Shown: in pieces, positions 1 to 42,808 of the stretch | How the letters are laid out: each line of letters begins with the position of its first letter | Numbering within the stretch: position 1 is the stretch's first letter | Source: a virus | Reading direction: 5' to 3' (one strand) | Length of the DNA: 42,808 nucleotides | Virus record (IMG/VR): IMGVR_UViG_3300025164_001013 | Coordinates: 1-42,808 of that record | Program-made: the position numbers and the translations under genes | The notes under the pieces: generated by a model | Database searches by the model: none | Seen by the model: the letters and a program-made list of their open reading frames with translations, nothing else | What the model was told of the DNA's origin: nothing

Positions 1-217
1 ATGCGCCGGCCAGCAGCCTCACGACCGTGAGCGTCGCCGCGCCCTCCGAGCGCGTCGAGCATGCGCCGGCCAGCAGCTTCACGTCGCCCACGACGACCCT
101 GGTGCCGCGCGTGCGCCACACGCGGTCGCGCAGCGCAGACGCCATCTGCACGAGCGTCCCGATCGTCGGCGGACCGGAGGACCGAAACGGTCTGTGCCGG
201 TAGATCTGCGCCGCCAT
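1..217 (-). CDS. 5' part of tail-fibre-like gene X, running off the window start; joins in frame to 41940..42808 if the record is circular
   Basis: ATG at 217..215, 9 nt after the stop of 227..655. High-GC3 frame giving MAAQIYRHRPF...GDVKLLAGACSTRSEGAATL. The codon phase continues exactly across coordinate 1 into the open frame at 42808. Confidence 0.4.
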   Translation of the reverse strand, partial: MAAQIYRHRPFRSSGPPTIGTLVQMASALRDRVWRTRGTRVVVGDVKLLAGACSTRSEGAATLTVVRLLAGA

Positions 218-2862: not shown

Positions 2863-3459
2863 TCATGTCACCTCGCCATCGCTCACGCTGGCGAGCGCGC
2901 CGTAGGTCAGCCCGCGCCCGAGGTCATCGAAGACTTCGGTGCCGTCATCCGAGAACGCGAACACCTCGTCGATAGGTTCGCTGAACCACTCGAGCAGGCC
3001 ACGCACGCCAGCCGCGCGCGCGCGCTGCAAGATCTTCGCGATCTCGACACCGTCCAACTCCGTGATCGGCTCCTGCACATCGATCGTGAAGGCCGCCGGC
3101 GGCTCTTCACGAAGCTCCAGGTCCTTGCCCTCGACGAGCTTCTCGACGATAGCGATCACCTGCTCGGCTAGTCCGCTCGAGCGGTTGACCATGACCCTCG
3201 CCGCGATCCAGATCCGGTAGGATTCGTCGCCGCGCCCCTGGCGAGGCTGCCCGACGATGCGACCGAGGCGATCGAGCTGCACGCCTGCTGCGAGCGGCAG
3301 CTGCGTACGCACCAGCACGTCCCACAGGGCGTCCTCGATCTCCTGCACCTGCTTGAGCAAGCTGCTCAACAGAGCCTCGAAGACCGGCAGCCCGCGGAAC
3401 TGCGCGAGCGGCAGCCGCAACCCGTCCTCGACGTGGTTGTCGACGCGGGCCAGCGTCAT
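2863..3459 (-). CDS. Baseplate wedge protein (P2 gpI / DUF2612-like)
   Basis: ATG at 3459 in ATGA overlap with the stop of the J-like gene. Position immediately after baseplate J. The upstream 59 codons of the tracked ORF are Arg-rich and rejected. Confidence 0.55.
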   Translation of the reverse strand: MTLARVDNHVEDGLRLPLAQFRGLPVFEALLSSLLKQVQEIEDALWDVLVRTQLPLAAGVQLDRLGRIVGQPRQGRGDESYRIWIAARVMVNRSSGLAEQVIAIVEKLVEGKDLELREEPPAAFTIDVQEPITELDGVEIAKILQRARAAGVRGLLEWFSEPIDEVFAFSDDGTEVFDDLGRGLTYGALASVSDGEVT

Positions 3460-4679
3460 GCCGGGCTCCCGTTCAGCGTGATTCGGAAGCGGTCGTCCTC
3501 TGCCTCGGTGCTCAGCCTCGCGTACTGCGTTGGTCCGATCGCGACCGACGCCACACCGGTCGAGCCAGCCGTGACCTCGGTCTCGCCAATCCCGACGACG
3601 GCATCGAGCACGCCCGGCACATTCAGCACCGCGCACAGCACGCGCGACCGGAACGCGTCGTCGCCGAGCCCCCAGTAGCCGTTGCGCTCGGGCGTGTGCA
3701 CGGCTGCTCGAACGGCGTCGCGGAGCACGAGCCCGCTCACGCCCGCTCCGACCTCGACCGTTGCCGCGATGCCGACCCAGATCTCAACCAAGCTCGAAGG
3801 CGTGTAGCGCACCGTCTGCTCGTCGCCCTGCGAGTCCTGCACCTCGATCTCTTCCTCGCCGTGCGAGTAGATGCCAGCCGGCTTGTTGCTCCAGATCGAG
3901 TGGCCGATCGTCGTCGCGAGCCCTTCGCCCTCGCCCTGCACGGTCGCTTCGAAGCTGTGAGGTGGTAGCCCGGTCTGGAAATCGAACATGTGCGAGGTGT
4001 TCTCTCTCACCACCGCGTCCTCGACGTCGTCGAGCGCAATCAGGTCGGCGCGGATGCCGTCGACGGTGCCGCCACCCGCTTGCGCGAGCTCGGCCTCGCG
4101 GCGCGCGCGGAACAGCACGTCGGACTCGGGCGTGCTGTCGCCGAGCTCGGCGTCGAGCACGTTCGTGGCCGCGTTCCAGCCGCCGACCGATGTCTCGATC
4201 ACCGTGAGGGTCTCGGCGTTAGCAACGATTGGGCCGGGCGACTCGGCTTCCGCCGCGACATCATAGTCGCCGGCGCCGATCGACGTCACGGACTCGAGCG
4301 TGATGAAGCGCGCGCCGGGGTTGCCGTCGACGCTCACCACACTGCCGGCCGGCACCGTCGTCGCCGCATCGAGAGCGAGCGTGAGTTCCACGGTGCTGCG
4401 CTCGGCGTCCTTGCGGATCGAGCCCGTCAGCGCCGCGATAGCGTCGAGCTGCGCTGCCTCGGCCTGGTCCGGATCGCCCGCGGCGTAGACCGATTCTGCG
4501 AGCTCCCACAGCTCAGAGAGCTTGCGGGCCATCACGCCGTTCATTTGGCCCAGCACCGAGTGCGCCGACACGTCGAGCGTCGGGTCTATCGTGGCCTTCT
4601 GGTCGGCCTCAATCTCCGCGAGGATCACGGCGAGCGGCTTGCGACTGAAGCCTGTGTCGGTGACGCCGTAAGTGGGCAC
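3456..4679 (-). CDS. Baseplate J-like wedge protein
   Basis: 407 aa. N-terminus MPTYGVTDTGFSRKPL..IL.EIE and overall pattern typical of the Baseplate_J family. Synteny spike-J-I-fibre. Confidence 0.8.
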   Translation of the reverse strand: MPTYGVTDTGFSRKPLAVILAEIEADQKATIDPTLDVSAHSVLGQMNGVMARKLSELWELAESVYAAGDPDQAEAAQLDAIAALTGSIRKDAERSTVELTLALDAATTVPAGSVVSVDGNPGARFITLESVTSIGAGDYDVAAEAESPGPIVANAETLTVIETSVGGWNAATNVLDAELGDSTPESDVLFRARREAELAQAGGGTVDGIRADLIALDDVEDAVVRENTSHMFDFQTGLPPHSFEATVQGEGEGLATTIGHSIWSNKPAGIYSHGEEEIEVQDSQGDEQTVRYTPSSLVEIWVGIAATVEVGAGVSGLVLRDAVRAAVHTPERNGYWGLGDDAFRSRVLCAVLNVPGVLDAVVGIGETEVTAGSTGVASVAIGPTQYARLSTEAEDDRFRITLNGSPA

Positions 4680-4730
4680 GCTCGATCCTCTGCGAGCAAC
4701 GTACCGGCGGCTGAGGAGGCCCGGACCCCT

Positions 4731-5411
4731 CTAGGTGGCCTTGACCTTCGAGGCTGCGACGCTGCCCGCGGGAGTCAGCACGGCCGCGTCCCATGCAATC
4801 TTCGCGGCAGCGAAGGCCTCCGAGCCGGTGGCGCCGACTCCTGTGCCTAGCATCGTCGAGATCGCAGAATGCACCTTGCCCGCGAGCGCGACCGCATCAT
4901 CTGCCGACACGTCGCCGAGGTGCACGTAGTCCTCGTCGATCGCGATCGCTGGGCCGTCCTCGCGGCGGAGCACGAGCTTGCCCGATGGTTGCGCGCCGAG
5001 CTTGTTGGGCTCGGCCGGTGACAGCGCCGGGATCGCGTACGCGCCCGAGAGCCCGTGCGTCCGCAGGTCCTTCTGCCGGTGGATCTTCCCGTCGCCGATG
5101 AAGGCTTCGAGCGAGCATTCCGAAAACATCACCCACACGAAGTCGCCCGGGGCGAGCGGCAGGTGCACGAAGTAGCCGCCGCCGGCGGGATGTCCGATCG
5201 GCACGTCGCGCAGCTTCGGCAGCTGCTCGTGCGTGGTGGTGCCGTCGCGCTTCGGCAGCGCCAGCTCGATCTGGATCTCGACGTCGGCAACCTGACGCGC
5301 GGAGTCGTACGAGACGATGCGACCGGGCAGCGCGGTGTGGAGCGAGCGCCGGAAGGCCTCGAGTGCGGAGCGGATCACCTCGGTGAGGGTGGGGGTGGTG
5401 CCTGCCGTCAT
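4731..5411 (-). CDS. Baseplate central spike (Gp138 N-terminal / gpV / Mu gp45-like)
   Basis: 226 aa. LPGRIVSYD....ADVE motif and OB-fold-like N-terminus typical of Gp138_N spikes. Overlaps the hub gene stop by 4 nt. Confidence 0.65.
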   Translation of the reverse strand: MTAGTTPTLTEVIRSALEAFRRSLHTALPGRIVSYDSARQVADVEIQIELALPKRDGTTTHEQLPKLRDVPIGHPAGGGYFVHLPLAPGDFVWVMFSECSLEAFIGDGKIHRQKDLRTHGLSGAYAIPALSPAEPNKLGAQPSGKLVLRREDGPAIAIDEDYVHLGDVSADDAVALAGKVHSAISTMLGTGVGATGSEAFAAAKIAWDAAVLTPAGSVAASKVKAT

Positions 5412-23943: not shown

Positions 23944-24797
23944 GGCACGGCCTCCATGACCAGACCGAATGGACGCATGCCTCTCGTGAACGCCTCGCCG
24001 CGGTCGCCGACGTAGAAGACCGCGATGTCCTCGCGAATCGGGATACCGTTGCAGTCAACGTCCTGGCGCCCCTCTGCGAATAGCACCTTGGCCACACGCC
24101 CCAGCCGCTGAAACCACTCGGACCCAGTACCTGGGCGACTGATCACCGCGATACCCTGCCGAAACGATCCTGCTGCGAACTCGGCCACGAGCCTGGAGAG
24201 CAGCCCCCTCCGGCTCGCGGAGACATGCACGATCACCGTCGACGCGCTCCATCGATCCGGCTCGTCTCCCGTGATTACGAGGGCATCGGGTCCTGCTAGC
24301 TCTAAGAGCGCGCTGAAGACGGGCCCGTGGATCCCAAGTTTTTCGCGACTGTACTCCGGATCCCATGACGGGCTTGCAACCAGTGGTCCTTCGGCTCTCC
24401 GAAGAATCCTCGCCTTCCCAAGCGCGATCCGTTCGGCAAACTCGACGCTCGGAACCTTGGCCAGCCGCTCAGCTCGATACACTTCTTGATTAGAAAATCC
24501 GTAGTTCCTGATCGTGTCTTGCTTGGTCACCCTGGTAGCGCTTTGCGTCTTCGGACTTGGCCCGGGCTTCGCCAGGGCGATGCCAATGGTTATTTCCCCA
24601 ATTCTGCGCTTCGCGATTTGCACTAACTCCCAGGCGGCCGCATGAGCTTCTCCCCCGCGATCACGTGCTTCGGCATATGAGCGCAGTGCCTCCGCCTGTG
24701 ATTGCATCTCCCTAAGCTCCCAAAGGTCACTGCATTCGACCAGCGCCGTGCGCGCTGACTCGATTTTTTGAAGTGTGGTGATTTGCATCTGCGTCAT
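23940..24797 (-). CDS. Dam-like paralog lacking the NPPY catalytic motif
   Basis: ATG at 24797 in ATGA overlap. Collinear similarity to 23014..23943 over its whole length, but the NPPY position reads VHVSAS. Its 5' third is visibly less GC-rich. Confidence 0.55.
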   Translation of the reverse strand: MTQMQITTLQKIESARTALVECSDLWELREMQSQAEALRSYAEARDRGGEAHAAAWELVQIAKRRIGEITIGIALAKPGPSPKTQSATRVTKQDTIRNYGFSNQEVYRAERLAKVPSVEFAERIALGKARILRRAEGPLVASPSWDPEYSREKLGIHGPVFSALLELAGPDALVITGDEPDRWSASTVIVHVSASRRGLLSRLVAEFAAGSFRQGIAVISRPGTGSEWFQRLGRVAKVLFAEGRQDVDCNGIPIREDIAVFYVGDRGEAFTRGMRPFGLVMEAVP

Positions 24798-25372
24798 GCC
24801 TCCTCCCTCGCCGACTGCGGCAGCACAGCGCCGACCTCGCCCGCTCGAGCCGCCCACGAGCCGATAAGGATCGCCGGCGCCGACTCTTGCCCGACCACGG
24901 GCCCGACCGCTCCGCTGTCCTGCACGACGAGGCGCGCGCGCACGAGCTCGGCCGCCTTCGCGGTTTCACGTGACACGCGACCGATACCGACAGCGTCGCG
25001 CCAGCGCTGCGGATCGACGGTGAGGCGCCGCGTGTTGGGCTGCCGGCACGACACCCACGCAAGCCGCCAGCTCGCACGCGTCTCGCCTGAACCGAGCAGG
25101 CTCGCGAAGCTGCGCTTGCCACCTCGGTGATGCACGGGCGGCCGCTCGAGCACGAGCACGCACGGCACGCTCGCGAGTGCGAAGAGCTGCACGGCCGCGG
25201 CCACGACTGCGCGGACGGCCTCGAAGTCGAGCCCGTCGACCTCGCCCCACTGCACGAGCCGGCCCTGCCCCCAGATGGCCCAGCCGGCGTGGCGGCCGGG
25301 GTCGACCGCCAGCACGACGCAGCGGTGCGGTCGGTAGCTCGCCTGGCGGCGTGGCTTCTTGGGCCGCTTCAT
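24794..25372 (-). CDS. RuvC-like Holliday junction resolvase
   Basis: ATG at 25372 in ATGA overlap. VVLAVDPGRHAGWAIW (first catalytic Asp motif) and C-terminal ESAPAILIG. Confidence 0.65.
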   Translation of the reverse strand: MKRPKKPRRQASYRPHRCVVLAVDPGRHAGWAIWGQGRLVQWGEVDGLDFEAVRAVVAAAVQLFALASVPCVLVLERPPVHHRGGKRSFASLLGSGETRASWRLAWVSCRQPNTRRLTVDPQRWRDAVGIGRVSRETAKAAELVRARLVVQDSGAVGPVVGQESAPAILIGSWAARAGEVGAVLPQSAREEA

Positions 25373-25827
25373 GGGCAACACCCGGCTGCTCTTGCCTCCT
25401 CTTCGAGCTGAGCGGCGCTCACCTCTCCGAATGCGCGCTTCCTTTTCCCCAGCTCTTCGGCTGGCCACGGAGACCGGCGCACGACCAGCACGCGCGCCAT
25501 CGCGCCGGGCAACTGCACGTAACGCAACGCGATGTCGGTGCGTGTCGAGCACCAGCAGCACACCGTTGCGCGTCGCCGCACCGGGTTTCCGTGTTGGCCG
25601 AAGGTCCGTTTGCCCGCGTCGTCGAGCACTTCCTCGTGCAGGACCGCCGCAGCGCATCCGCATGCCGGACAATGCACGACGGTGCCGGCGGCGAACGATG
25701 CGTCGATCTGGGCCTGCAGCGCTTTCGCAGCCGCGAGCCCTGCGGCGGCAAGAGCAGCGGTCGCGGTGACGGTTTGTGACGGCTCCGGGGGCGCGAGCGC
25801 GAGCTCAAGCGGCACTGGCTGCGTCAT
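25369..25827 (-). CDS. Cys-rich hypothetical protein
   Basis: ATG at 25827 in ATGA overlap. 152 aa, with HCPACGC and CCWC clusters. The rest of the 418-aa tracked ORF is rejected. Confidence 0.45.
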   Translation of the reverse strand: MTQPVPLELALAPPEPSQTVTATAALAAAGLAAAKALQAQIDASFAAGTVVHCPACGCAAAVLHEEVLDDAGKRTFGQHGNPVRRRATVCCWCSTRTDIALRYVQLPGAMARVLVVRRSPWPAEELGKRKRAFGEVSAAQLEEEARAAGCCP

Positions 25828-25979
25828 GCGGCTCCTTGGGCGTCCACACGCTCTCTGGCGGCTGCCAGCTGCCGGCGGAGGCCGTCCGCTTGCTGCGCGT
25901 AGCGAGGCGCCTCGGCGAGCTGGTCCGCCACCTGCTCGCGCGTCGAGGGTGGGCGGGGCTGCTTGGTTGCCTCGCTCAT
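25824..25979 (-). CDS. 51-aa ORF, possibly the orphaned original C-terminus of the initiator
   Basis: ATG at 25979 in ATGA overlap with the DnaC-like stop. Its codons 9-21 (PPSTREQVADQLA) are encoded by the 39-bp repeat also found at the initiator 3' end. Confidence 0.35.
   Translation of the reverse strand: MSEATKQPRPPSTREQVADQLAEAPRYAQQADGLRRQLAAARERVDAQGAA
25914..25952. repeat. 39-bp perfect direct repeat (partner 26674..26712) bracketing the DnaC-like gene
   Basis: GGCGAGCTGGTCCGCCACCTGCTCGCGCGTCGAGGGTGG is present at both positions. The flanks differ. Confidence 0.9.
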
Positions 25980-26656
25980 CCCGCACCCCGCAGGTCTGGG
26001 CCGGTGTCCCGAACCCACGCCACGACCTTGAGCCGCGATTCGATCCGCGGGTCTCGGTACGCCTCGATGGCCTGCTCGCGCGCCAGGTTGGTGGTGATGA
26101 GCGTTCGGGCGCCTTGCCGGGCCTCGAGCAGCTCGCGCAGTGCCAGCACCATCCACTCTCGGTCGCGGCTGTGCTCCGTCCCGAGGTCGTCGAGCACCAG
26201 CAGGCGCGTCGCGAGCATCCGCTCCTGTTCGGCCGTTGCGTCGAGAGCCCGACTGGCGAAGGCCCGCACAACCGACGCGGCGGGGCGCTGTAGGCCGCCG
26301 AACTGTGCGAGCGCCATTGCGGCCGCGACCGTCTTGCCGCAGCCGGCTCCGCCCTGAAGCACGAGCACGGGCGGCTTGCCGGGCGCGAGCCAGCGCTCGG
26401 CCGCCCGCTGTGAGGTGCCGCGCGGCTCGAGTCGCCCTCGCACGAGAGCGTCCATGACCGGACCTGTGAGTGCCAACGCGACCCCCGAGACCCGGATCCG
26501 TTCGCGACGCTGGTCGCGCTCGATGTTCTGCCTGGCCTCGTGCTTGCCGCGCTCATGCTCGAGCGCGGCCTCGTCGTCGACGGCGCCTGAGCGCTCGACG
26601 CGCGCCAGCACGTCCCGCAGTGCATCTCCGAGTCGAGCGGTCACGCGTCCACCCAT
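25976..26656 (-). CDS. DnaC/IstB-like AAA+ helicase loader
   Basis: Walker A LQGGAGCGKT, Walker B LLVLDDLG. ATG at 26656; alternative GTG at 26644 in GTGA overlap. Confidence 0.8.
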   Translation of the reverse strand: MGGRVTARLGDALRDVLARVERSGAVDDEAALEHERGKHEARQNIERDQRRERIRVSGVALALTGPVMDALVRGRLEPRGTSQRAAERWLAPGKPPVLVLQGGAGCGKTVAAAMALAQFGGLQRPAASVVRAFASRALDATAEQERMLATRLLVLDDLGTEHSRDREWMVLALRELLEARQGARTLITTNLAREQAIEAYRDPRIESRLKVVAWVRDTGPDLRGAG

Positions 26657-27432
26657 TCCGGGTTTGGCTCGCGGGCGAGCTGGTCCGCCACCTGCTCGCG
26701 CGTCGAGGGTGGCAGGATGCCGCTCGCGCGCTGCGGCTGTGGCTCCGGCGCGTCGTCGACCCACTGCTCGAGCTGGGCGAGCAGCACCGCGAGACCGAGG
26801 TGGCGCGCCCGGACCTGCGAGTCGCGCTTGAATCTCTGGCAGGCCGCACGGAAGAGCTCGAGCGCCGTGGTGCCGCGCTCGGCCGCGAGACGCTCGAGCA
26901 GCGGAACGACGGCTCCAATGCGAGTCCGCATGACCCCGCTCGTCGTCAGCCCGCCAGCGCCGTCCCATGCGTCGGCCAGCTCGCGCTGGGACTGGGACTG
27001 GGTGGGACTGCGTGGGACTGGGACGGGGTGGGACTGCGTGGGACTGGGACTGTGGGACTGGTGGCCCGCAGGCGCGCGCGCGTTCTCGCTCTCTTCTGGT
27101 AAGATTGCGTATTCATTTGAGATCTTAAAGTCTTGAGGAGAGGATTCAGAGATCGCGCGCGGAGCAGTCCCACCAGTCCCACCCGGTTTTGGTACCGATT
27201 TTGGGGTGGGACTGGGGTGGGATTCCGTCGTGGGACTGGGGTGGGACTGGGGTGGGATTCCGTCGTGGGACTGGTGGGACTGGGACTGCGTGGGACTGGT
27301 GGCCGCGAGCTGGCGGGTCACGGCGCCGAGTAGCTCCACCTCGGGACCGAAGCCGGGCTCGCGGCAGAGTCGTGCGCGTACGACCCCGAGCGCGGCGATC
27401 GCGGTCTCGAGCGATTCTTGCCGACGTGCCAT
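26641..27432 (-). CDS. Replication initiator candidate (lambda O-like organisation) containing the origin
   Basis: ATG at 27432 preceded by GGGGGA. 263 aa. The central low-complexity linker (SHPSPT/PTQSQS) is encoded by the iteron arrays. Directly upstream of the DnaC-like gene. Confidence 0.6.
   Translation of the reverse strand: MARRQESLETAIAALGVVRARLCREPGFGPEVELLGAVTRQLAATSPTQSQSHQSHDGIPPQSHPSPTTESHPSPTPKSVPKPGGTGGTAPRAISESSPQDFKISNEYAILPEESENARAPAGHQSHSPSPTQSHPVPVPRSPTQSQSQRELADAWDGAGGLTTSGVMRTRIGAVVPLLERLAAERGTTALELFRAACQRFKRDSQVRARHLGLAVLLAQLEQWVDDAPEPQPQRASGILPPSTREQVADQLAREPNPEWVDA
26987..27297. repeat. Origin of replication: two iteron arrays flanking an AT-rich segment
   Basis: Left array: TGGGACT x8 plus 1 variant (26987..27059). 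AT-rich stretch at about 27091..27150. Two inverted copies of AGTCCCA (27166..27172, 27175..27181). Right array: TGGGACT x7 plus 2 TGGGATT variants (27207..27297), including a perfect 35-bp tandem duplication (27203..27237 and 27238..27272). Confidence 0.75.
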
Positions 27433-27482
27433 CACCAGTCCCCCAGGCGGCGTTTGTTGGTGCGGACCAAGGGCGCCTCCGA

Positions 27483-27992
27483 TCAGGAAGGTTCGACCGT
27501 GGGGGGCTCGTCGGTGTCGAGGTCGTCGTCGCTCTCGTCGCGCTTCTCGGGCAGGCGTCGGCTCTTGGGTGTGCGTGGGCGCTGGAATTCGGGCTGCGAG
27601 AAGCCGGCCTGGCACTCCTCGGCCGTCATGGTGCGGGCTGCGACGGCCTCGCCGGTGTCGTCGCGGCGGAGGATCATCGACTTGCCGATCCAGTCCGCGT
27701 ACCAGGTGCAGGACACGATGCGGTCCTCGCTCTGTCGGCGCACGACACCGGCGAGCTCAACGCGCTCGACGGCGAGGCCGTCGATCTTCCCTTTGTAGTG
27801 ATCGCTCTGGCGCTTCTTCTCTGCCTCGAGCGCCGAGAGGTCGTCTTCGATCTTCGCCAAGCGCATCGCGCGCTCGTTGAACTCCGTTTGGGTGAGCCTG
27901 CACGCGAGTACGCGCGACTCGGTCTGGTTGGTCTGTTGGATGGGCTCTTCGCCCGGGCTGCTGGCTGCGTTCGACGGTGGCTTCTTGGGCAC
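27483..27992 (-). CDS. Coiled-coil hypothetical protein with acidic tail
   Basis: GTG at 27992 preceded by GGAGGAGG 7 nt upstream. 169 aa. High GC3. Confidence 0.5.
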   Translation of the reverse strand: MPKKPPSNAASSPGEEPIQQTNQTESRVLACRLTQTEFNERAMRLAKIEDDLSALEAEKKRQSDHYKGKIDGLAVERVELAGVVRRQSEDRIVSCTWYADWIGKSMILRRDDTGEAVAARTMTAEECQAGFSQPEFQRPRTPKSRRLPEKRDESDDDLDTDEPPTVEPS

Positions 27993-28054
27993 GGTGGGTC
28001 CTCCTCCGGAAGCGCGTGCGTACTGACTGCGCGGGGTGTTGAGATACGGGCGAG

Positions 28055-28270
28055 TCAGAACCTCCCTGCGCCGCCTGCGCGGGCAGCGGCGTCGTCGCTC
28101 TGCGGGGGGGTGCAGAGCGCGGCTGCGTCGGGCTGCGACGCAGGGAGCGGTGGCGGGGGCGCGGCGTAGTAGCAGGGCATGCACAGGCCGCGCGTCTGAT
28201 CGAGGTCGAGGCGCTGCGTTTGCGTGCTTGCGGGCAGCAGGCAGCGCTTGCAGCGCTCGAGCGGCTTCAC
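28055..28270 (-). CDS. Small zinc-ribbon protein
   Basis: GTG at 28270 in GTGA overlap. CKRC...CMPC. Very high GC3 in this frame only. Confidence 0.45.
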   Translation of the reverse strand: MKPLERCKRCLLPASTQTQRLDLDQTRGLCMPCYYAAPPPPLPASQPDAAALCTPPQSDDAAARAGGAGRF

Positions 28271-28410
28271 GCGGCACCTCGTTCGGCGCGCCGCATCACC
28301 GAGACAGCGCTCGCAGCGTCGTGCGAGTAGCCGTAGGACGGCGCTCCGCGCGTAGGCGCAGCAGAGGCGCCGCAGCCGTCGAGCAACGCGACATAAAGCG
28401 CACGGATCAT
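28267..28410 (-). CDS. 47-aa hypothetical ORF
   Basis: ATG at 28410 in ATGA overlap with the upstream stop. Moderate GC3. Weak call. Confidence 0.3.
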   Translation of the reverse strand: MIRALYVALLDGCGASAAPTRGAPSYGYSHDAASAVSVMRRAERGAA

Positions 28411-28745
28411 GACGTCGTCTCGATGCGGTCGAGAAAAAGGTCCGCGCCCCCACGTGCGTCGGCTGGCTCCGAAGGGGCAGAAGAGGCAGCCCGGAAGGGC
28501 GCGGATCTTTGGACGCCGTCGAGCGCGCGGCACAACTCGCGCAGCACTGGCGATGCGCTCGCGAGCGCATCGGTTTCGCCGACAGGCACTCTCACCGAGC
28601 ACTGCGACCGGCAGCGCGCGCACAGTCCGCGCGCGTATTCGTGCGGGAGCATCGTCTCTCCGCAGACGCACACGATCCTGGCAGGAGCGGGCGCTGGGCG
28701 CAGTTCGACGATGCGGTCGAGCAGCTCGGGGGACGAATCGATCAC
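28407..28745 (-). CDS. Small zinc-ribbon protein
   Basis: GTG at 28745 in GTGA overlap. CVCG...CARC motif. 112 aa. Confidence 0.45.
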   Translation of the reverse strand: MIDSSPELLDRIVELRPAPAPARIVCVCGETMLPHEYARGLCARCRSQCSVRVPVGETDALASASPVLRELCRALDGVQRSAPFRAASSAPSEPADARGGADLFLDRIETTS

Positions 28746-29029
28746 AACGCGCCTCCGCTTCGGATCTGGGCCCGCTGTTGCGGGCTGAGCCCGTCTTCTG
28801 GACGCCGAGCGCACAGCAGATCGATCGTCCGCGAAGCGCTCTCGACCGTGGCGCGCCGCACCGACTCGCCGATCAGGTGCGCGAGCAGGTCGGAGCGGTG
28901 AGGCGCTGCGGGCTCTCGTGCTGCGAGCGGAAGGCCATCGATCGGCATCGGCCCGCGCGGCTGCCGAGAGAGCAGGTCGGCGCGCAGGAAGAGCGAGAGC
29001 GGCGAGGGCGAGCGAGCGAGCAGCGTCAA
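28742..29029 (-). CDS. Hypothetical protein
   Basis: High-GC3 frame. TTG at 29029 overlaps the upstream stop (TTGA). Alternative ATG at 28948. Start uncertain. Confidence 0.4.
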   Translation of the reverse strand: MTLLARSPSPLSLFLRADLLSRQPRGPMPIDGLPLAAREPAAPHRSDLLAHLIGESVRRATVESASRTIDLLCARRPEDGLSPQQRAQIRSGGAL

Positions 29030-29241
29030 GGCGCACCTCCGTCGGCCACGCCGGCGTCGCCGGCGTCGTCTTCGTCGGCCAGGTATGACCGGCACCAGTC
29101 CCGCACCTGGTCCGAGCGCGGGGTCGTGGAGTCGGCCGCGTACGCAGCGCGCGCCAGCAGGTACACGCAGCCGGTCGCGATCCCGATCGCGACGCTCAGC
29201 CCGAAGCGCTCGAGTGGTGAGACGGGGCGATGCGTCTTCAT
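29026..29241 (-). CDS. Small membrane protein
   Basis: ATG at 29241 in ATGA overlap. One hydrophobic helix FGLSVAIGIATGCVYLL. Acidic tail. Confidence 0.45.
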   Translation of the reverse strand: MKTHRPVSPLERFGLSVAIGIATGCVYLLARAAYAADSTTPRSDQVRDWCRSYLADEDDAGDAGVADGGAP

Positions 29242-37345: not shown

Positions 37346-39020
37346 CCGTCCGCCCAGCTTGCGGCCACCGGCCGGCCCGCGCGACAAGCGCCCGATGGGC
37401 AGCGGGTCGATCGAGGAGCGCGACGGCCGCCACCGCGTGCGGGTAAGGGTCGCGGGCCGCAAGCGCACGCTCGGCACCTACGCGACCCACGCCGAGGCGG
37501 CAGCGGTGCTCGAAGCGGCGCTAGAGCAGCTCTCGGCCGACCGCACCGCAAGCCCCGGCGCCACCACGCTGCGCGATTGGATCGCGCGCTGGCTCGAACA
37601 GCGCCACCTCTCGGGTGTCGTGCGCTCGGTCTACGACGACGAGTCACGCTTGCGCGCGCACGTGCTCTCTGAGCCGTGGGCCGACGACGCGCTCGACCAG
37701 ATCGACCGCCGCACCGTGCGGGCATGGGCGATCTCGATGCTGTCGCGCGAGGGCCGACGCCACGCCGGCGACGGCAAGCTGGTCAGCACCGGCCGGCGGC
37801 TCTCGCGCCACACCGTCAGCCACGTGCTCGCGACCCTGCGGGTGTGCCTGCGCGACGCCGTCGAACTCGGGCTGCTCGACGAGAACCCAGCCGCCGGCGT
37901 GCGGGTGCCGGCCGCGCAGTACACGCACGAGCCCTGGACGTACCTCACACAGGGCGAGATCGACGCGCTGCTGTCGTGCGAGCTCGTGCCCGCGCCGTAT
38001 CGGCTTCTCTACCGGGTCGCCATCTACACCGGCCTGCGCAAGGGCGAGCTCTGGGGCCTGCGCTGGGGCGACTGCTACCTCGACCACGCGACCCCGCACC
38101 TGATGGTGCGCCGCTCAAGGTCCGCAGCCCCGAAGAACGGCAAGATCCGAATGGTGCCGTTGCTCGGGCAGGCACGGGAGGCGCTCGAGCAGATGAACTC
38201 CATTTGTTCAGATTTGGCCCCTGATCGTTCAGCCGAAGGGGGTGATCGTTCAGCCGACCTCGTCTTCCCGGCACCCGACGGCTCGATGCGCGCGCGCTGG
38301 AACGACGCTCGGTGGAAGCAGCGCCGCAAGCCCTACACCACGGCCGACGGCGAGCGCCGCCACATCACCGAGCCCGGCTACCGCGAGCTCGCCGGCATCA
38401 AGCGCCACGTGCGCTTCCACGACCTGCGGCACACGTGCGCGAGCCATCTGCTGATGGGCACCTGGGGCCGAGCGTGGCGGCTCGAGGAGGTGCGGGATTT
38501 GCTCGGCCACAGCGACACCGCGGTCACGCAACGCTACGCCCACCTGGCGCCCGATCGCCTGCACGCCGCGGCCGCGGCGACGGTGCTCGAGCGGCCCCAG
38601 ACTGGCCCCACGGCACACGCTGCGAGCACCGCGGGCAGCGTGATCGGCGCCGACAACGCGCTGCAATCGCTGGACATTGCGCGGGGAGCCATCTCCGAGA
38701 TTCGAACTCGGGACCGACGGTTTACGAAACCGGTCGGGAGTGACGGACGTCATGGTGCTTTCGGCCCGTTGGGGCTGGCGTGGGGCCACGAAGCGCATGA
38801 GCTGGCGATCGACATTCTGCGGCGCGCCGCGCGCGGTGATGCCGTGCCTATCGAGGCAGCACACGGACTCGCTCAAGCCGTAGCCTCACACAAGGCGTTC
38901 AGGCTTGCCGCTGCCGTCCTGGCAGAGCTCGGCCAGCCCACGGCCCAGTCGCTGGCGGTCACACTCGCCGTGCTCGTTACGGAGGCGCTCGAGCGCACGC
39001 CGGAGGCCGGTCATGGCTGA
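37338..39020 (+). CDS. int: Tyrosine integrase with a long C-terminal extension that crosses the attP core
   Basis: Motifs GLRKGELWGLRWGD, HDLRHTCASHLL, LGHSDTAVTQRYAHL. No stop codon until 39020, about 150 codons after the catalytic Tyr. Alternative start at 37395. Confidence 0.85.
   Translation: MPDRPPSLRPPAGPRDKRPMGSGSIEERDGRHRVRVRVAGRKRTLGTYATHAEAAAVLEAALEQLSADRTASPGATTLRDWIARWLEQRHLSGVVRSVYDDESRLRAHVLSEPWADDALDQIDRRTVRAWAISMLSREGRRHAGDGKLVSTGRRLSRHTVSHVLATLRVCLRDAVELGLLDENPAAGVRVPAAQYTHEPWTYLTQGEIDALLSCELVPAPYRLLYRVAIYTGLRKGELWGLRWGDCYLDHATPHLMVRRSRSAAPKNGKIRMVPLLGQAREALEQMNSICSDLAPDRSAEGGDRSADLVFPAPDGSMRARWNDARWKQRRKPYTTADGERRHITEPGYRELAGIKRHVRFHDLRHTCASHLLMGTWGRAWRLEEVRDLLGHSDTAVTQRYAHLAPDRLHAAAAATVLERPQTGPTAHAASTAGSVIGADNALQSLDIARGAISEIRTRDRRFTKPVGSDGRHGAFGPLGLAWGHEAHELAIDILRRAARGDAVPIEAAHGLAQAVASHKAFRLAAAVLAELGQPTAQSLAVTLAVLVTEALERTPEAGHG
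38687..38733 (-). other. attP core: 3' 47 nt of a tRNA-Thr(CGU)-like gene (anticodon arm, variable loop, T arm, 3' acceptor strand)
   Basis: Minus strand reads CCGGT-TTCGTAA-ACCGT-CGGTC-CCGAG-TTCGAAT-CTCGG-AGATGGC-T. No D arm or complementary 5' acceptor strand lies upstream, so this is a fragment and not a gene. Confidence 0.6.
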
Positions 39021-39033
39021 CCCGGAGGGACAG

Positions 39034-39129
39034 CTAGCTCGGCGACGAGAGCACGTCGCCGTCCTCGCCCGCGATCTCTATCGCGAGGGGCGCATCGGTA
39101 TCGCCGTATGTGCTGGTGTAGCGAATCAT
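39034..39129 (-). pseudogene. Truncated copy of the 105-aa post-fibre ORF (31 codons)
   Basis: The first 27 codons are identical at nucleotide level to 41863..41943. The sequence then switches to 8 bp matching fibre Y (40138..40145) and stops. Confidence 0.45.
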
Positions 39130-39130
39130 G
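39049..39130. repeat. 82-bp perfect direct repeat (partner 41863..41944)
   Basis: Identical strings GAGCACGTCGCCGTCCTCGCCCGCGATCTCTATCGCGAGGGGCGCATCGGTATCGCCGTATGTGCTGGTGTAGCGAATCATG at both positions. Confidence 0.9.
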
Positions 39131-40505
39131 CCGCGAGCCCCGTGGTAGCGGTGATGTAGGCGCGAATGAAAGCATCCAACTCCGAGGACGCATCCTCGAC
39201 CATGATCAGTAGATAGAATTTGCCACCCGACACACTCGGGTGCCCGACGTTGATCGCATCTACACTGTCGCATCCCGATGTGCCGGTGAACGCCGGCGAT
39301 ATCGCTGCGCCGTCGAGCTTGCCCACAAGCCCACTCGCCAAAAACTCAATGCTGGCGGTATGCCAGGCTGTGTCCGCAGCCGGGCTCGACAGTGTTATTT
39401 GTTGCAGCCCTCCGGGCTCGGGCTCGGCCTCCATAACAAAACTGCCACCACTGCGGTACAGCGCTGCATCGCCCGGACCACACAGCACGGCGCATGGTGC
39501 CATGACGCCCGACGCGTGTTGCGTCACAACGAAATACATTCGAATGCGGCGACCGCTCGACAACGATATTGCTGTGTTGGTCAGGATGTCGTCAGCGTCG
39601 TTTGGTACCGTGTACGGGAGGTTGTTTGGCCCTCCACTCGCCACATATAGAGGCTGCAAGCTCGCTGTTGCCTGCGTGCAGTGATAGGTGCCCCATCGAT
39701 CGTTGAGCTGCGAGACGTTCGCACCGTTTAGCGTGACGTTCGCCGCGGACACCTCGAGCCAGACGTGCCGCGTGAAGCCAGTGCCATTGGTGACGACGGC
39801 ATCCCATGTCGCTGCGACGACGATCTCGTCATACGCGGTGGACGCGCCGTCGTGTACGGTGAGCCGCAGCACAATCGCTGCGGATGGAGCGCTGGGCGTA
39901 AATGTGCTGATAAGCGACGTGTCATCGCCGAATACGCCCGCTCCACCACTCTGCACGGTCCACTCGTACGTATAGCTCCCGGTTCCACCAGACGCTCCCA
40001 CTCCGGCGAGGACAGCAACCCCGTTGGCCCAAGACGTAGGAGCTAAGCCTGCGTCTACCGTCAGACTCACCCCGAGCGTCGCCGCGCCCTCCGAGCGCGT
40101 CGAGCATGCGCCGGCCAGCAGCCTCACGACCGCATTCGGCGACGAGAGCACGTCGCCGAATGCGATCGGCACCTCGCCGGCCGTCGTGATCGCGACGACT
40201 TCCACCGCGCACCGCCGGCGATCGTCCAGCGACACGCTAAACGCGCGCACAGCCACCACCCCTGGCGTAGCAAGCGCCACCTGTCTGAGCACGGCGCGCG
40301 CCAACCGCAGATTCGGGTGCTTGACGAAGACCAGCTGGAACCACGGCACCCCTACCCGTGAGTCCAAAAACCATTCGCCGAGAAACGTGCGGAATCGGAT
40401 TCGCAGGCTCTGCACCACAGCATCGGCGCCGACCGCTAGGCTGAGCCGTCCCTGCGTGATCGTCAGGTCCCCGGTCGCCAGATCGAGCCTAATATCACTA
40501 CTCAT
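39126..40505 (-). CDS. Tail fibre Y: baseplate-wedge-like N-domain, conserved junction, PKD/Ig-like domain, LamG/ConA-like lectin domain
   Basis: 459 aa. N-terminus has DAVVQSLRIRFRTFLGEWFLD..VGVP (gp25/W/XkdS-type pattern). Junction VVRLLAGACSTRSEGAATL. YTYEWTVQSGG Ig-like repeat. Beta-rich C-terminus of about 230 aa. Confidence 0.7.
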   Translation of the reverse strand: MSSDIRLDLATGDLTITQGRLSLAVGADAVVQSLRIRFRTFLGEWFLDSRVGVPWFQLVFVKHPNLRLARAVLRQVALATPGVVAVRAFSVSLDDRRRCAVEVVAITTAGEVPIAFGDVLSSPNAVVRLLAGACSTRSEGAATLGVSLTVDAGLAPTSWANGVAVLAGVGASGGTGSYTYEWTVQSGGAGVFGDDTSLISTFTPSAPSAAIVLRLTVHDGASTAYDEIVVAATWDAVVTNGTGFTRHVWLEVSAANVTLNGANVSQLNDRWGTYHCTQATASLQPLYVASGGPNNLPYTVPNDADDILTNTAISLSSGRRIRMYFVVTQHASGVMAPCAVLCGPGDAALYRSGGSFVMEAEPEPGGLQQITLSSPAADTAWHTASIEFLASGLVGKLDGAAISPAFTGTSGCDSVDAINVGHPSVSGGKFYLLIMVEDASSELDAFIRAYITATTGLAA

Positions 40506-40508
40506 CGC

Positions 40509-40934
40509 TCACCTCTGCCGCACAGGCGGCTGCGCGTCCTGCAGGGCCCGCGCAGCCGCGGCCTGCGGGTCGAGGCCTTCCCGGCGGGCCTCGTCGTAGG
40601 CCATGCGCGCACGCTGGGCGGCCTCCGCTCGACGCCGCGGCTCGGCAGCGTCGGCGGCCGTGAGTGAGACGTACCGGCGCCAGAGATCGATCTCTCGCGT
40701 GCGTACCTCACGCTCTCGCTGCTCTGCAGCGAAGCTGCGCTCTTCAAGCACCCGCAGCCCGCGCCCAAGAGCCTCCGCGGACGCGCGAATGGGGGTGAGG
40801 TCGTCATCTCGCGCGAATCCATCCAGGTACACCCAGGCACCGCCCGCGAGCGACGTGAGCACGCCGACCGCAGACCAGAAGGTGCCGGAGCTGAGCACTT
40901 GCCGCGCTGAGCTCCAGGTGTCTCGTGGCGCCAC
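40509..40934 (-). CDS. N-terminally anchored coiled-coil membrane protein
   Basis: 141 aa. TM helix FWSAVGVLTSLAGGAWVYL followed by an Arg/Glu-rich helix. Tightly packed between neighbours. Confidence 0.5.
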   Translation of the reverse strand: MAPRDTWSSARQVLSSGTFWSAVGVLTSLAGGAWVYLDGFARDDDLTPIRASAEALGRGLRVLEERSFAAEQREREVRTREIDLWRRYVSLTAADAAEPRRRAEAAQRARMAYDEARREGLDPQAAAARALQDAQPPVRQR

Positions 40935-40936
40935 AC

Positions 40937-41626
40937 CTAGGTCACTCCTATCGAGATGGTGGCAGGGCTCGGGCCGAGCAGCTCACGGTGCACTTCGTGC
41001 AGCTCGAGTAGCGGGAACCGCAGGCGGAGATCGGTGCTGGCCAGCGCTGCGCGCCACTGCTGCCACAGCGGCGAGCGCGGCGCCACGATCCACTGACCGC
41101 CCATGCCGCCGACCGGCGAGCCGCGCCCCTCGAAGCGACGAACGTAGGGGTTGCGGGTGGTGTGACCGACGGTCGCATGTGCATCGACCACGCAGTCCAC
41201 GCAGCCGGCGGTGCAGAGCGCATCGCGCAGCCGATCGGCGAGGCCCCCGTCGCCCGCCTCACCACGTGACCCGCCGCTGCTGCACGCATAGAGCGCTACT
41301 CGCAGCCGCGGCGAGCAGCCGTGGTGGACGAGCGCGCGCGCGAGGTCACGCACAGAGGAGTTGTCGAAGCCGACCTGCAGGCCGGTCTGGTAGCCGTGGC
41401 AGAAGCAGGCCAGCAGATCGATCGGGCCCGCGGCTCCGAGCCGCGACAGGGACTCCAGGACGTGCTTACGCCGCTCTGGCGCAGTCCGGGTGCAGTCGAT
41501 GCTCTGCACGGATGTGCTCGGCAGATGATGGAGCTGCGCGAACGCTCGAGCCTCGGGCGCGAACGCTCCTGAGTAGTCACGGCGGCCGCGCGAATCGCGG
41601 TCGGGCGTGAGGATGAGGGCGCGCAT
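40937..41626 (-). CDS. Putative clan-CD (caspase-like) cysteine peptidase
   Basis: ATG at 41626 overlaps the upstream stop (TGATG). 229 aa. Hydrophobic strand then His-Gly (LLACFCHGY), followed by a hydrophobic strand then Ala-Cys (RVALYACSSGG), as in caspase-fold enzymes. Assignment by motif only. Confidence 0.35.
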   Translation of the reverse strand: MRALILTPDRDSRGRRDYSGAFAPEARAFAQLHHLPSTSVQSIDCTRTAPERRKHVLESLSRLGAAGPIDLLACFCHGYQTGLQVGFDNSSVRDLARALVHHGCSPRLRVALYACSSGGSRGEAGDGGLADRLRDALCTAGCVDCVVDAHATVGHTTRNPYVRRFEGRGSPVGGMGGQWIVAPRSPLWQQWRAALASTDLRLRFPLLELHEVHRELLGPSPATISIGVT

Positions 41627-41943
41627 CAGCAGCACCTCGGCGTAACGATCCACTCCACCGCGACCTCGCGAGTGCCACCCGCGGTCGTGATGCGCCAGGC
41701 GACGCAGAAGAGCGCGGGCACGCTCGGTTCTAGGATCATCCCCCAATCGATCACCCACATGAGTCCGGCCCCGCCATTGATCACGATGGCCGAAAACCCG
41801 TCATTGCCACCAAGACACGCGCCCGTTGGTGTGCGCACCTTCAGCGCGCCGCTGGTGACCTCGAGCACGTCGCCGTCCTCGCCCGCGATCTCTATCGCGA
41901 GGGGCGCATCGGTATCGCCGTATGTGCTGGTGTAGCGAATCAT
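41626..41943 (-). CDS. Post-fibre small beta-rich protein (candidate tail-fibre chaperone)
   Basis: ATG at 41943 in ATGA overlap with the fibre X stop. 105 aa. Its 5' 82 bp are duplicated after fibre Y. Confidence 0.5.
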   Translation of the reverse strand: MIRYTSTYGDTDAPLAIEIAGEDGDVLEVTSGALKVRTPTGACLGGNDGFSAIVINGGAGLMWVIDWGMILEPSVPALFCVAWRITTAGGTREVAVEWIVTPRCC

Positions 41944-42808
41944 GGCGTCCAGTCCTCTCCGTAGTAGCTTTCAAGTAGAGCTACCACCGCATCGCGTCGC
42001 GCCGCTGTGCCGCCCTTGCACACGACGATCGCCATCATGCGCCCGCCAAACGCATTGCCCGACGGCAGTCCCATCCTGTGTCCGAGGTTCACCTGCGTGC
42101 ACTCGTATTCGGTGCGCACCATGCCGCTGGCATCCGGGACGTCATAGGTGCCGCCTCCGGCCGAGTCTAGGGCCACGTGAAGCAGCCCGTCGGCGTCATC
42201 CATCCACCCCGAATACAGGTACGGATTGCTGATGTCGTTGTCTACTGTCGCAGTGCTGCTGCATTCGCGCACCGTGCTATCACCGTCCACGTAAGCCTGG
42301 CAGCGCACGATATTCGACGTCATCACCCGCGCTCTGATCACCTTGCCGGTATCGCCGGAAGAATCCGAGTAGTCTACTATGGTGCGCGTGGTTGATGCGT
42401 CGCTTATGGAAAACACCACGAAGCACGCTAAGGCGTCACTCGATGCAGCGAGCCCAGCGAAACCCGACGCCAATCGATAATGTTCAGATTCGGCGCGAGT
42501 AAAACCTACGTACGCTCGGTTGTTGACGCACATGCCGTCGGGACTCGGCGTGGGCTGATAGCTCCCCGTCTCTTGCGTCACGTGGTTTGCGTACGAGCTC
42601 GAGTCCGACCACTGCGACGCTGTGGCGTTCTCGGCGATCAACAGGTGCACGCAATCTGTCCCGAGCAGTGTCAGGAGGTCTGACACAAGCGTCTCCCACG
42701 CAGGGACATCGACCGTGAGCGTCGCCGCGCCCTCCGAGCGCGTCGAGCATGCGCCGGCCAGCAGCCTCACGACCGTGAGCGTCGCCGCGCCCTCCGAGCG
42801 CGTCGAGC
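41940..42808 (-). CDS. Tail fibre X, 3' part (frame open to the window end)
   Basis: No in-frame stop between 42770 and 42808. Encodes ...STRSEGAATLTVVRLLAGACSTRSEGAATLTVDVPAWE... followed by a 276-aa C-terminal domain. Less GC-rich than the core genome. Confidence 0.6.
   Translation of the reverse strand, partial: STRSEGAATLTVVRLLAGACSTRSEGAATLTVDVPAWETLVSDLLTLLGTDCVHLLIAENATASQWSDSSSYANHVTQETGSYQPTPSPDGMCVNNRAYVGFTRAESEHYRLASGFAGLAASSDALACFVVFSISDASTTRTIVDYSDSSGDTGKVIRARVMTSNIVRCQAYVDGDSTVRECSSTATVDNDISNPYLYSGWMDDADGLLHVALDSAGGGTYDVPDASGMVRTEYECTQVNLGHRMGLPSGNAFGGRMMAIVVCKGGTAARRDAVVALLESYYGEDWTP
42710..42808. repeat. 60-bp junction unit, 1.65 copies at the window end (further copies at 1..82 and 40074..40132)
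   Basis: 42749..42808 is identical to 1..60. 42710..42748 equals unit positions 22-60. 61..82 is a variant of positions 1-22. 40074..40132 equals unit positions 29-60 plus 1-27. Confidence 0.9.

Follow-up and report, generated by a model that had tools for sequence, protein, structure and literature searches.

The window analysed here is the whole stretch of 42808 nucleotides (nt) given by the IMG/VR record IMGVR_UViG_3300025164_001013. This 42.8-kb sequence belongs to a temperate myovirus, an uncultured soil phage, with integrase, terminase, portal, capsid, sheath and tube genes in its contig gene tables. Its baseplate is of the simple Pam3/E217 type and comprises a Dit-like tube initiator, a plug, a hub, a spike, a baseplate-J wedge and Wedge1. 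The locus under study occupies positions 39034-42808 and continues at 1-217 and, the integrase aside, every one of its genes lies on the minus strand. Two of these genes, called X and Y below, carry in frame the same 60-nt element, hereafter the linker, which the original prediction made on this DNA had taken for a joint between exchangeable modules of tail-fibre genes.

The longest exact match between the coding strands of X and Y is 59 nt long, so that the same 59-60-nt sequence does stand in phase in both genes, as had been claimed. Its 57-nt core is found exactly at 40074-40130 and 42717-42773 and recurs with 2 mismatches at 29-85, against 0 expected in 100 shuffles. Gene X runs from 217 down to 1 and then from 42808 to 41940. 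If the window is circular, it encodes 361 amino acids (aa), namely a 45-aa leader, three 20-aa units and 256 further residues, and a 361-aa gene is indeed called for X on the ENA contig (L002/L004) described below. The units follow each other head to tail with a period that is a multiple of three, which makes the X array an in-frame coding minisatellite, and one that most assemblies fail to cross. Y carries a single copy of the linker. The 5 nt CGGTC of this copy are present in X only at the junction from one unit to the next. The degenerate stub that follows it resembles the start of a unit (GTG AGG CTG) joined to the exit of the X array (ACG GTC GAT), in an alignment that was chosen post hoc.

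In both genes the linker is placed at the boundary between an N-terminal and a C-terminal part, and in Y it starts where sheath-initiator proteins usually end. The N-terminal parts of X and Y are unrelated. Their C-terminal modules show no significant similarity by BLASTP or hhalign, the best match being a 28-column motif at an E-value of 0.027, and the module of X gives a weak match to phrog_10356 and nothing else. The modular layout of the locus is thus as originally described. We read the 60-nt element as probably encoding a 20-aa connector that joins an N-terminal attachment part to a putative C-terminal receptor-binding module; in Y, a single unit links the sheath initiator to a PKD-like domain followed by a beta-rich module. 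A lipobox reading of its LLAGAC motif was ruled out by inspection: charged residues are found within the six preceding positions in every copy.

The arrangement does not depend on the ends of the window. The ENA contig k141_2802405 is 42949 nt long, which is 42808 nt and the 141-nt k-mer overlap that a circular MEGAHIT contig carries. Over 17691 nt spanning the end join, it agrees with the circularised window at 100% identity, and three units are present. The first 60 nt of the window are the same as its last 60 nt because the sequence was cut inside the X array; terminal redundancy or attL/attR sites were ruled out as the cause, the circular ENA contig spanning the join. A JGI contig from a second sample shows 99.96% identity over 10.2 kb and has the Y copy in the same context. 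From the circular ENA contig and the JGI contig of this second sample, we conclude that the repeat is real, in phase and no artefact of the window ends. The arrangement is seen again in independent assemblies, and the Y protein is encoded on 6 contigs.

As to the size of the array, for which the original prediction gave 2-3 tandem copies, the number of units is uncertain. The circular k=141 contig is the only assembly to cross the array and has 3 units. On the other hand, proteins of the X cluster in the databases have 1, 3 or 5 units (these are SRC-catalogue proteins from error-rich short-read assemblies), and most contigs break in the array. On the leader side, 8 contigs reach it and 1 crosses; 2 are shown to stop inside, 4 more are reported to stop at similar places and 1 stops just before. 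On the module side, the starts of contigs fall 96, 102 and 165 nt inside the array. These breakpoints are consistent with heterogeneity, or with longer arrays in some samples, without proving either. An estimate of the number of units from the stops of the k=141 contigs (117, 105, 165 and 96 nt into the array) was dropped, as these stops fit neither a pure array of at least four units nor a simple mixture of two and three. Contigs of this phage from at least 5 samples (L087, L088, L091, L092 and L093) have ends that fall inside the X array, and for this reason the X fibre gene is usually lost or split in metagenome gene catalogues.

The N-terminal part of Y had been described as a 125-aa baseplate-wedge-like domain. 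Residues 1-127 instead match the sheath-initiator family phrog_120, the Pfam family PF10934 and the Pam3 sheath initiator (chain 7yfz_X), as well as five other solved sheath initiators. A profile from 67 relatives, compared with all six frames of the genome, gave one hit, which was Y itself (E 1.4e-38). The Y N-terminus is thus the only sheath initiator of this genome. In Pam3 and phi92, the sheath initiator forms a hexameric ring from which the sheath grows, with a handshake to the first sheath ring. It clasps the wedge, its C-terminal arm touches the wedge and moves on contraction, and the protein is structurally essential (PMC9942802; PMC13450770).

The sheath initiator stands alone in 80 of 80 IMG/VR relatives, where it has 117-155 aa (median 121) and is encoded directly before J. 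The order Dit, plug, hub, spike, sheath initiator, J, Wedge1 is likewise found in all 80. In the window, the slot between the spike and J genes is a gap of 51 nt, and the sheath initiator is found some 5 kb away, where the fibre cluster ends beside the integrase gene, with a 330-aa C-terminal extension fused to it. An extension beyond the sheath initiator was seen in none of the 80 IMG/VR relatives and in none of the 200 GenBank phages matching Y. Of the 4143 hits in 1.84 billion representative proteins, the best 150 include 3 with C-terminal extensions of 170-280 aa, and one of these gives a weak match to Laminin_G_3. Sheath initiators with lectin-like C-terminal extensions therefore occur, but rarely.

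The original prediction had assigned PKD-like and LamG/ConA-like domains to the C-terminal module of Y. The first assignment holds through a homologue only, since the PKD-like stretch is under the Pfam cut-off in Y and over it in P0002, which is 54% identical. For LamG/ConA, Pfam searches and sequence and profile searches of the PDB returned nothing significant with either C-terminal module. P0002 has a different N-terminus and no linker, and it comes from an unrelated short contig. This contig, L001 (JGI sample 3300010391, 1773 nt), carries the sole homologue of the Y module, which has a short, unrelated N-terminus rich in Thr and Asn and is preceded by two small genes unlike anything in the window. 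Because this homologue differs from Y in both its N-terminus and its neighbour genes, the Y module seems to travel between unrelated phage backgrounds.

A second direct repeat, exact over 82 nt and 99% identical over 85 nt, lies at the other side of the two modules. The linker precedes each C-terminal module and the same 82 nt follow it, the module limits being the end of the linker and the stop codon. Such bracketing, 5' and 3', is the geometry expected for cassette replacement by homologous recombination. Behind Y, the repeat opens a 31-codon open reading frame (ORF) that begins like the 105-codon gene located 3' of X, and whose tail may be what was once the 3' end of the sheath-initiator gene, since displaced. 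A 23-nt sequence immediately ahead of the Y linker has an exact partner in this ORF, so that Y reads ...FGDVLSSP-NAVVRLL... where the 23-nt repeat meets the linker. The 12-mer GGCGACGTGCTC (coding GDVL) has 3 occurrences in the window, all at these junctions. An ancestral end of the form ...FGDVLSSPS-stop agrees with the C-terminal length of the family, and the 23-nt duplication would mark a microhomology junction.

Composition also distinguishes the parts. The GC content of the C-terminal modules is 0.61 versus 0.68 for the genome. Third codon positions (GC3) give 0.83-0.88 for the core tail genes, 0.91 for the leader of X and 0.95 for the linker copies, as against 0.72 for the X module and 0.68 for the Y module. 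Judged by GC3, the linker looks native, in contrast to the modules, which have the appearance of imported DNA. The low GC content originally noticed around the linker is thus real as far as the modules are concerned, but the DNA flanking it is not dissimilar throughout, given that the 82-nt and 23-nt repeats are shared there. The features of the locus are collected in Table 1.

Table 1. Features of the X/Y locus and of related positions in the window (all coordinates are those of the window)
Feature	Position	Strand	Description
X, 5' part	1..217	-	Start codon 217..215; 45-codon leader 217..83; unit 1 and part of unit 2 at 82..1; GC3 0.91
Gap between spike gene (5411..4731) and baseplate-J wedge gene (4679..3456)	4680..4730	-	51 nt; sheath-initiator slot in every relative
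Tyrosine integrase	37395..39020	+	541 aa, PF00589; converges on the 31-codon ORF, 13 nt between stop codons
31-codon hybrid ORF	39034..39129	-	27 codons of the 105-codon gene, then SSPS-stop
Second repeat, copy B	39049..39133	-	Y stop codon and first 27 codons of the 31-codon ORF
Gene Y	39126..40505	-	459 aa; sheath initiator, linker and C-terminal module
Y C-terminal module	39130..40052	-	PKD-like, then about 230 aa; 54% identical to P0002 on contig L001; GC3 0.68
Degenerate stub after Y linker	40053..40073	-	GGG GTG AGT CTG ACG GTA GAC = G VSL TVD
Single linker copy in Y	40074..40132	-	59 nt identical to X array; includes 5 nt of unit-to-unit junction (CGGTC/GTGAGG)
Sheath-initiator domain (Y residues 1-127)	40125..40505	-	phrog_120, E 1.4e-29; PF10934; Pam3 gp21 chain 7yfz_X, E 2e-14
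23-nt exact repeat	40136..40158	-	CGGCGACGTGCTCTCGTCGCCGA, codes GDVLSSP; just before Y linker; partner at 39039-39061 in the 31-codon ORF
141-codon gene	40509..40934	-	No assigned function
238-codon gene	40937..41653	-	Relatives at 36-39% identity in fibre regions of L040 and L077
105-codon gene 3' of X	41626..41943	-	No relative outside this phage
Second repeat, copy A	41863..41947	-	X stop codon and first 27 codons of the 105-codon gene, ending GGCGACGTGCTC (GDVL)
X, 3' part	41940..42808	-	Rest of array 42808..42711, then 256-aa module without recognisable family; GC3 0.72
Tandem 60-nt array in X	42711..42808 and 1-82	-	Three 20-codon units V(K/R)LLAGACSTRSEGAATLTV; units 2 and 3 identical, unit 1 differs at 2 nt

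We also checked how far the linker extends beyond this phage. When X and Y were searched against 5.8 billion proteins, the sole matches were the clusters of this phage itself and P0002. The 33-nt core of the linker gave zero hits in IMG/VR, its 27-nt core gave zero hits in the JGI metagenome contigs and the GTDB genomes, and the linker was not found in GenBank phages. In none of these collections does the motif flank other modules in other phages. Since the linker occurs nowhere else in the collections searched, it is no joint shared across phages, contrary to what had been suggested, and it appears to be private to this phage lineage.

The searches of the 5.8 billion proteins also gave no protein fusing the X leader to the Y module or the sheath initiator to the X module. 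Two truncated proteins from run SRR3972149, P0010 and P0160, have a variant sheath initiator followed by at least 3-4 units of the X type. Their sheath-initiator allele shows the consistent substitutions S3R, V83A, A88G, F89V and D95G. They could be real products of conversion or duplication, or graph chimeras made via the 59-nt repeat.

We propose that general or microhomology-mediated recombination grafted a block with a receptor module onto the 3' end of the sheath-initiator gene, and that the linker is a scar of such ordinary recombination as well as a substrate for it, and no host-range switch. We consider this account probable. The starting point would be a stand-alone sheath-initiator gene ending in ...FGDVLSSPS-stop and abutting the 3' end of the integrase gene. 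A block made of the linker, the Y module and the start of the 105-codon gene (27 codons) would then have been copied into the 3' end of the sheath-initiator gene; such a block would be equivalent to an alternative X-locus allele. On the right, the junction would lie in the 12-13-nt GDVL microhomology common to the 105-codon gene and the sheath-initiator gene. The outcome would be the 23-nt duplication and the hybrid 31-codon ORF, whose SSPS-stop tail would be the old end of the sheath initiator. Two routes could lead there, either a double template switch or an unequal exchange followed by a microhomology deletion, and no dedicated recombinase would be involved. Because 59 nt are fully identical yet the adjoining stub has diverged, the comparison suggests that the event was recent or that gene conversion with the X array is ongoing.

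As for the present behaviour of the locus, the viable changes would be those in the number of units, and hence in spacer length, gene conversion between the X and Y connectors, and a reciprocal 2.6-kb duplication. A crossover between the direct linker copies, or between the 82-nt copies, would remove the only sheath initiator and is most likely a dead end; the direct repeats can therefore persist. In functional terms, the phage may display two different binding modules, one on a short fibre and the other as six copies tethered to the sheath-initiator ring.

Several points weigh against this proposal. The closest other sheath-initiator hit is at most 51% identical and, because no collection holds a close relative, we can only infer the ancestral state and the order of events. 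Receptor binding by either module is a prediction, and the LamG assignment is unconfirmed. Both structure models failed: the AlphaFold2 models of Y, built from a 3-sequence alignment, and of X, built from a single sequence, have a mean predicted local distance difference test score (pLDDT) of 35 and 38, respectively, and are unusable. Genomes that suffered the deletion could in principle be complemented during co-infection. Finally, P0010 and P0160 may mean that exchange is more active than a one-off scar.

This last point leads to a more dynamic hypothesis, which we regard as doubtful. The connector repeats would then be an active engine, in which unequal exchange and gene conversion between the X array and the Y connector, within replicating concatemers, keep varying the spacer length and the pairing of the two anchors, fibre leader and sheath initiator, with the modules. 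If this hypothesis were true, the fragments from SRR3972149 that join a sheath initiator to an array would be glimpses of the engine at work. Moreover, as the C-terminal arm of the sheath initiator moves during contraction (PMC13450770), a binding module tethered to this arm could directly couple receptor engagement to sheath triggering.

One would also wonder whether the 20-aa unit is kept for a role at the protein level, as a shaft repeat, a hinge or a docking peptide, its nucleotide identity being a by-product. The unit is in frame and at domain boundaries in both genes, its codon composition is native, and tandem units would lengthen a stalk. However, such a role leaves unexplained the identity at every synonymous site over 59 nt, and the peptide is found in no other protein. 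A Pam3-style disulfide dock via the linker cysteine was considered and rejected as unlikely, the Wedge1 protein having no cysteine (PMC9942802), and the structure models are uninformative in this respect. We thus hold a purely protein-level explanation to be unlikely.

Another possibility is the one put forward originally, namely that the linker is a dedicated joint for swapping receptor-binding cassettes, with a deletion of 40133..42709 fusing the X leader to the Y module and switching host range. The linker copies are identical, in phase and direct, shared sequence brackets both modules on both sides, the modules are compositionally foreign and the copy number varies across assemblies. The geometry of the proposed deletion is also correct, as it would indeed create the announced fusion. 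However, the deleted interval contains the only sheath initiator, so that the product would have lost an essential tail protein, which is probably lethal. Moreover, neither the fusion of the X leader to the Y module nor that of the sheath initiator to the X module is on record, and none of the other phages searched contains the linker. A host-range switch of this kind is in our opinion improbable.

We give even less credit to the idea that the repeat is a collapsed or chimeric assembly path and the gene arrangement not real. Most contigs do break in the array, the SRC-catalogue proteins, which derive from assemblies of read runs, differ in their number of units and contain many errors, and the fragments with a sheath initiator and an array could be graph chimeras via the 59-nt repeat. 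But the k=141 contig crosses the array unambiguously, since a 141-mer exceeds the 59-nt repeat in length and no 141-mer recurs in a 3-unit array, and it equals the window at 100%. In addition, the Y linker and both 82-nt copies are found within single contigs from at least 2 other samples. The least credible suggestion makes the repeats the sites on which a site-specific recombinase acts, be it the adjacent tyrosine integrase or an invertase of the kind known from shufflons and the Mu G segment: the integrase gene is only 13 nt from the locus, but all copies are direct and none inverted, the junctions resemble microhomology joins and not a common core site, and no invertase is found among the Pfam-annotated genes of the contig tables, outside which lies the region of about 24400-29100.

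The integrase itself is long for a tyrosine integrase, at 541 aa. Given the 13-nt spacing, attP cannot lie between its stop codon and that of the 31-codon ORF. At the 3' end of X, the stop codon shares bases with the ATG of the 105-codon gene. Neither IMG/VR nor the protein database contains a relative of the 105-codon or the 141-codon protein. Just upstream of X, a 142-aa protein encoded at 227-655 matches the Pfam family Gp80, "Podophage GP4 fiber I protein" (E 9e-26), and represents a podophage fibre component within a myovirus. In the relative L077, a homologue of Gp80 is found directly 3' of the homologue of the 238-codon gene. A scan of the locus for promoters and terminators gave nothing exceeding the shuffled expectation.

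Two other repeats were noticed elsewhere in the window. In the region 26987-27302, the hexamer TGGGAC is present more than 20 times; its copies form two blocks, at 26987-27064 and at 27202-27302, and two inverted copies lie at 27165-27183. These blocks flank about 70 nt of AT-rich sequence (27085-27150), and the whole resembles the iteron or operator array of a control region or an origin. At 2844-2876, a perfect 14-nt tandem duplication, GAGGTGACATGAGC on the coding strand, lies where the Wedge1 gene stops and a BNR-repeat fibre gene starts. It doubles the ATGA stop/start overlap and is another small slippage scar at a gene boundary.

If our proposal is correct, the locus would offer a base-resolved example of how a phage can gain a second receptor-binding module, by a graft of linker, module and start of the next gene at microhomologies onto an essential baseplate protein. 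It would also indicate that a sheath initiator can accommodate large display domains at its C-terminus, which could be useful for host-range engineering in simple myophages and in tailocins. A word of caution also follows, in that direct repeats around fibre modules imply no switch when an essential gene lies between them. Finally, short coding arrays of this type break most metagenome assemblies exactly at fibre genes.

A parallel can be drawn with several known systems. In the long-tail-fibre locus of the T-even phages (gp37/gp38), recombination takes place at conserved motifs (Tetart et al. 1998, via PMC3157838). The closest known case would be this conserved-motif recombination in T-even tail-fibre genes, together with the small in-frame duplications in T4 gp37. 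According to what that source relates, short conserved sequences flank hypervariable adhesin segments there, and exchange occurs in or beside them by general recombination with no dedicated enzyme, as we propose here. In the same account, the T-even motifs are common to many phages and merely similar, whereas the present linker is private, exact in its DNA and tandem, and it links two genes of one genome. At the locus studied here, conserved sequence is indeed present on both borders between constant and variable parts, with the 59-nt linker on the 5' side and the 82-nt repeat on the 3' side.

As to the duplications, Tetart and colleagues reportedly described in 1996 an expansion of the T4 host range by tandem duplication of a small tail-fibre domain. 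In both cases a short coding segment is tandemly duplicated in frame within a fibre gene. On the other hand, the T4 piece belongs to the adhesin tip, whereas here the duplicated piece is a connector upstream of the binding module, with no known phenotype. Another comparison concerns the antireceptors of Streptococcus thermophilus phages, in which, as Duplessis and Moineau are said to have found in 2001, collagen-like repeats flank a variable host-specificity region. There also, repeated coding motifs border a variable receptor-binding region and have been proposed as recombination points; however, the type of repeat and the group of phages differ, and those motifs are common across phages.

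Inversion switches and shufflons are a further point of reference. The Mu G/Gin, P1 C/Cin and R64 Rci systems are reversible and depend on a dedicated recombinase that acts on inverted repeats. The likeness lies in a constant N-terminal part that can be joined to alternative C-terminal binding cassettes nearby. Unlike in these systems, the repeats are direct here, no invertase is seen and the crossover product has lost an essential gene. Because all copies of both repeats are direct, the locus is no inversion switch. It is no diversity-generating retroelement either, because the copies are identical over 59 nt and 82 nt; no reverse transcriptase was found among the Pfam-annotated genes of the contig tables, which cover the genome only in part.

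The last comparison is with the simple myophages Pam3, phi92 and E217. Residues 1-127 of Y match in sequence the sheath initiators Pam3 gp21 (7yfz), phi92 gp139 and E217 gp34/35, and the remaining baseplate genes are those of these phages, arranged in the same order. Unlike these stand-alone sheath initiators, the one described here has been displaced by about 5 kb, to a position at the end of the fibre cluster beside the integrase gene, and carries a C-terminal extension of 330 aa. What is unusual in this phage is thus a displaced sheath initiator that bears a grafted binding module and whose junctions can be clearly read.

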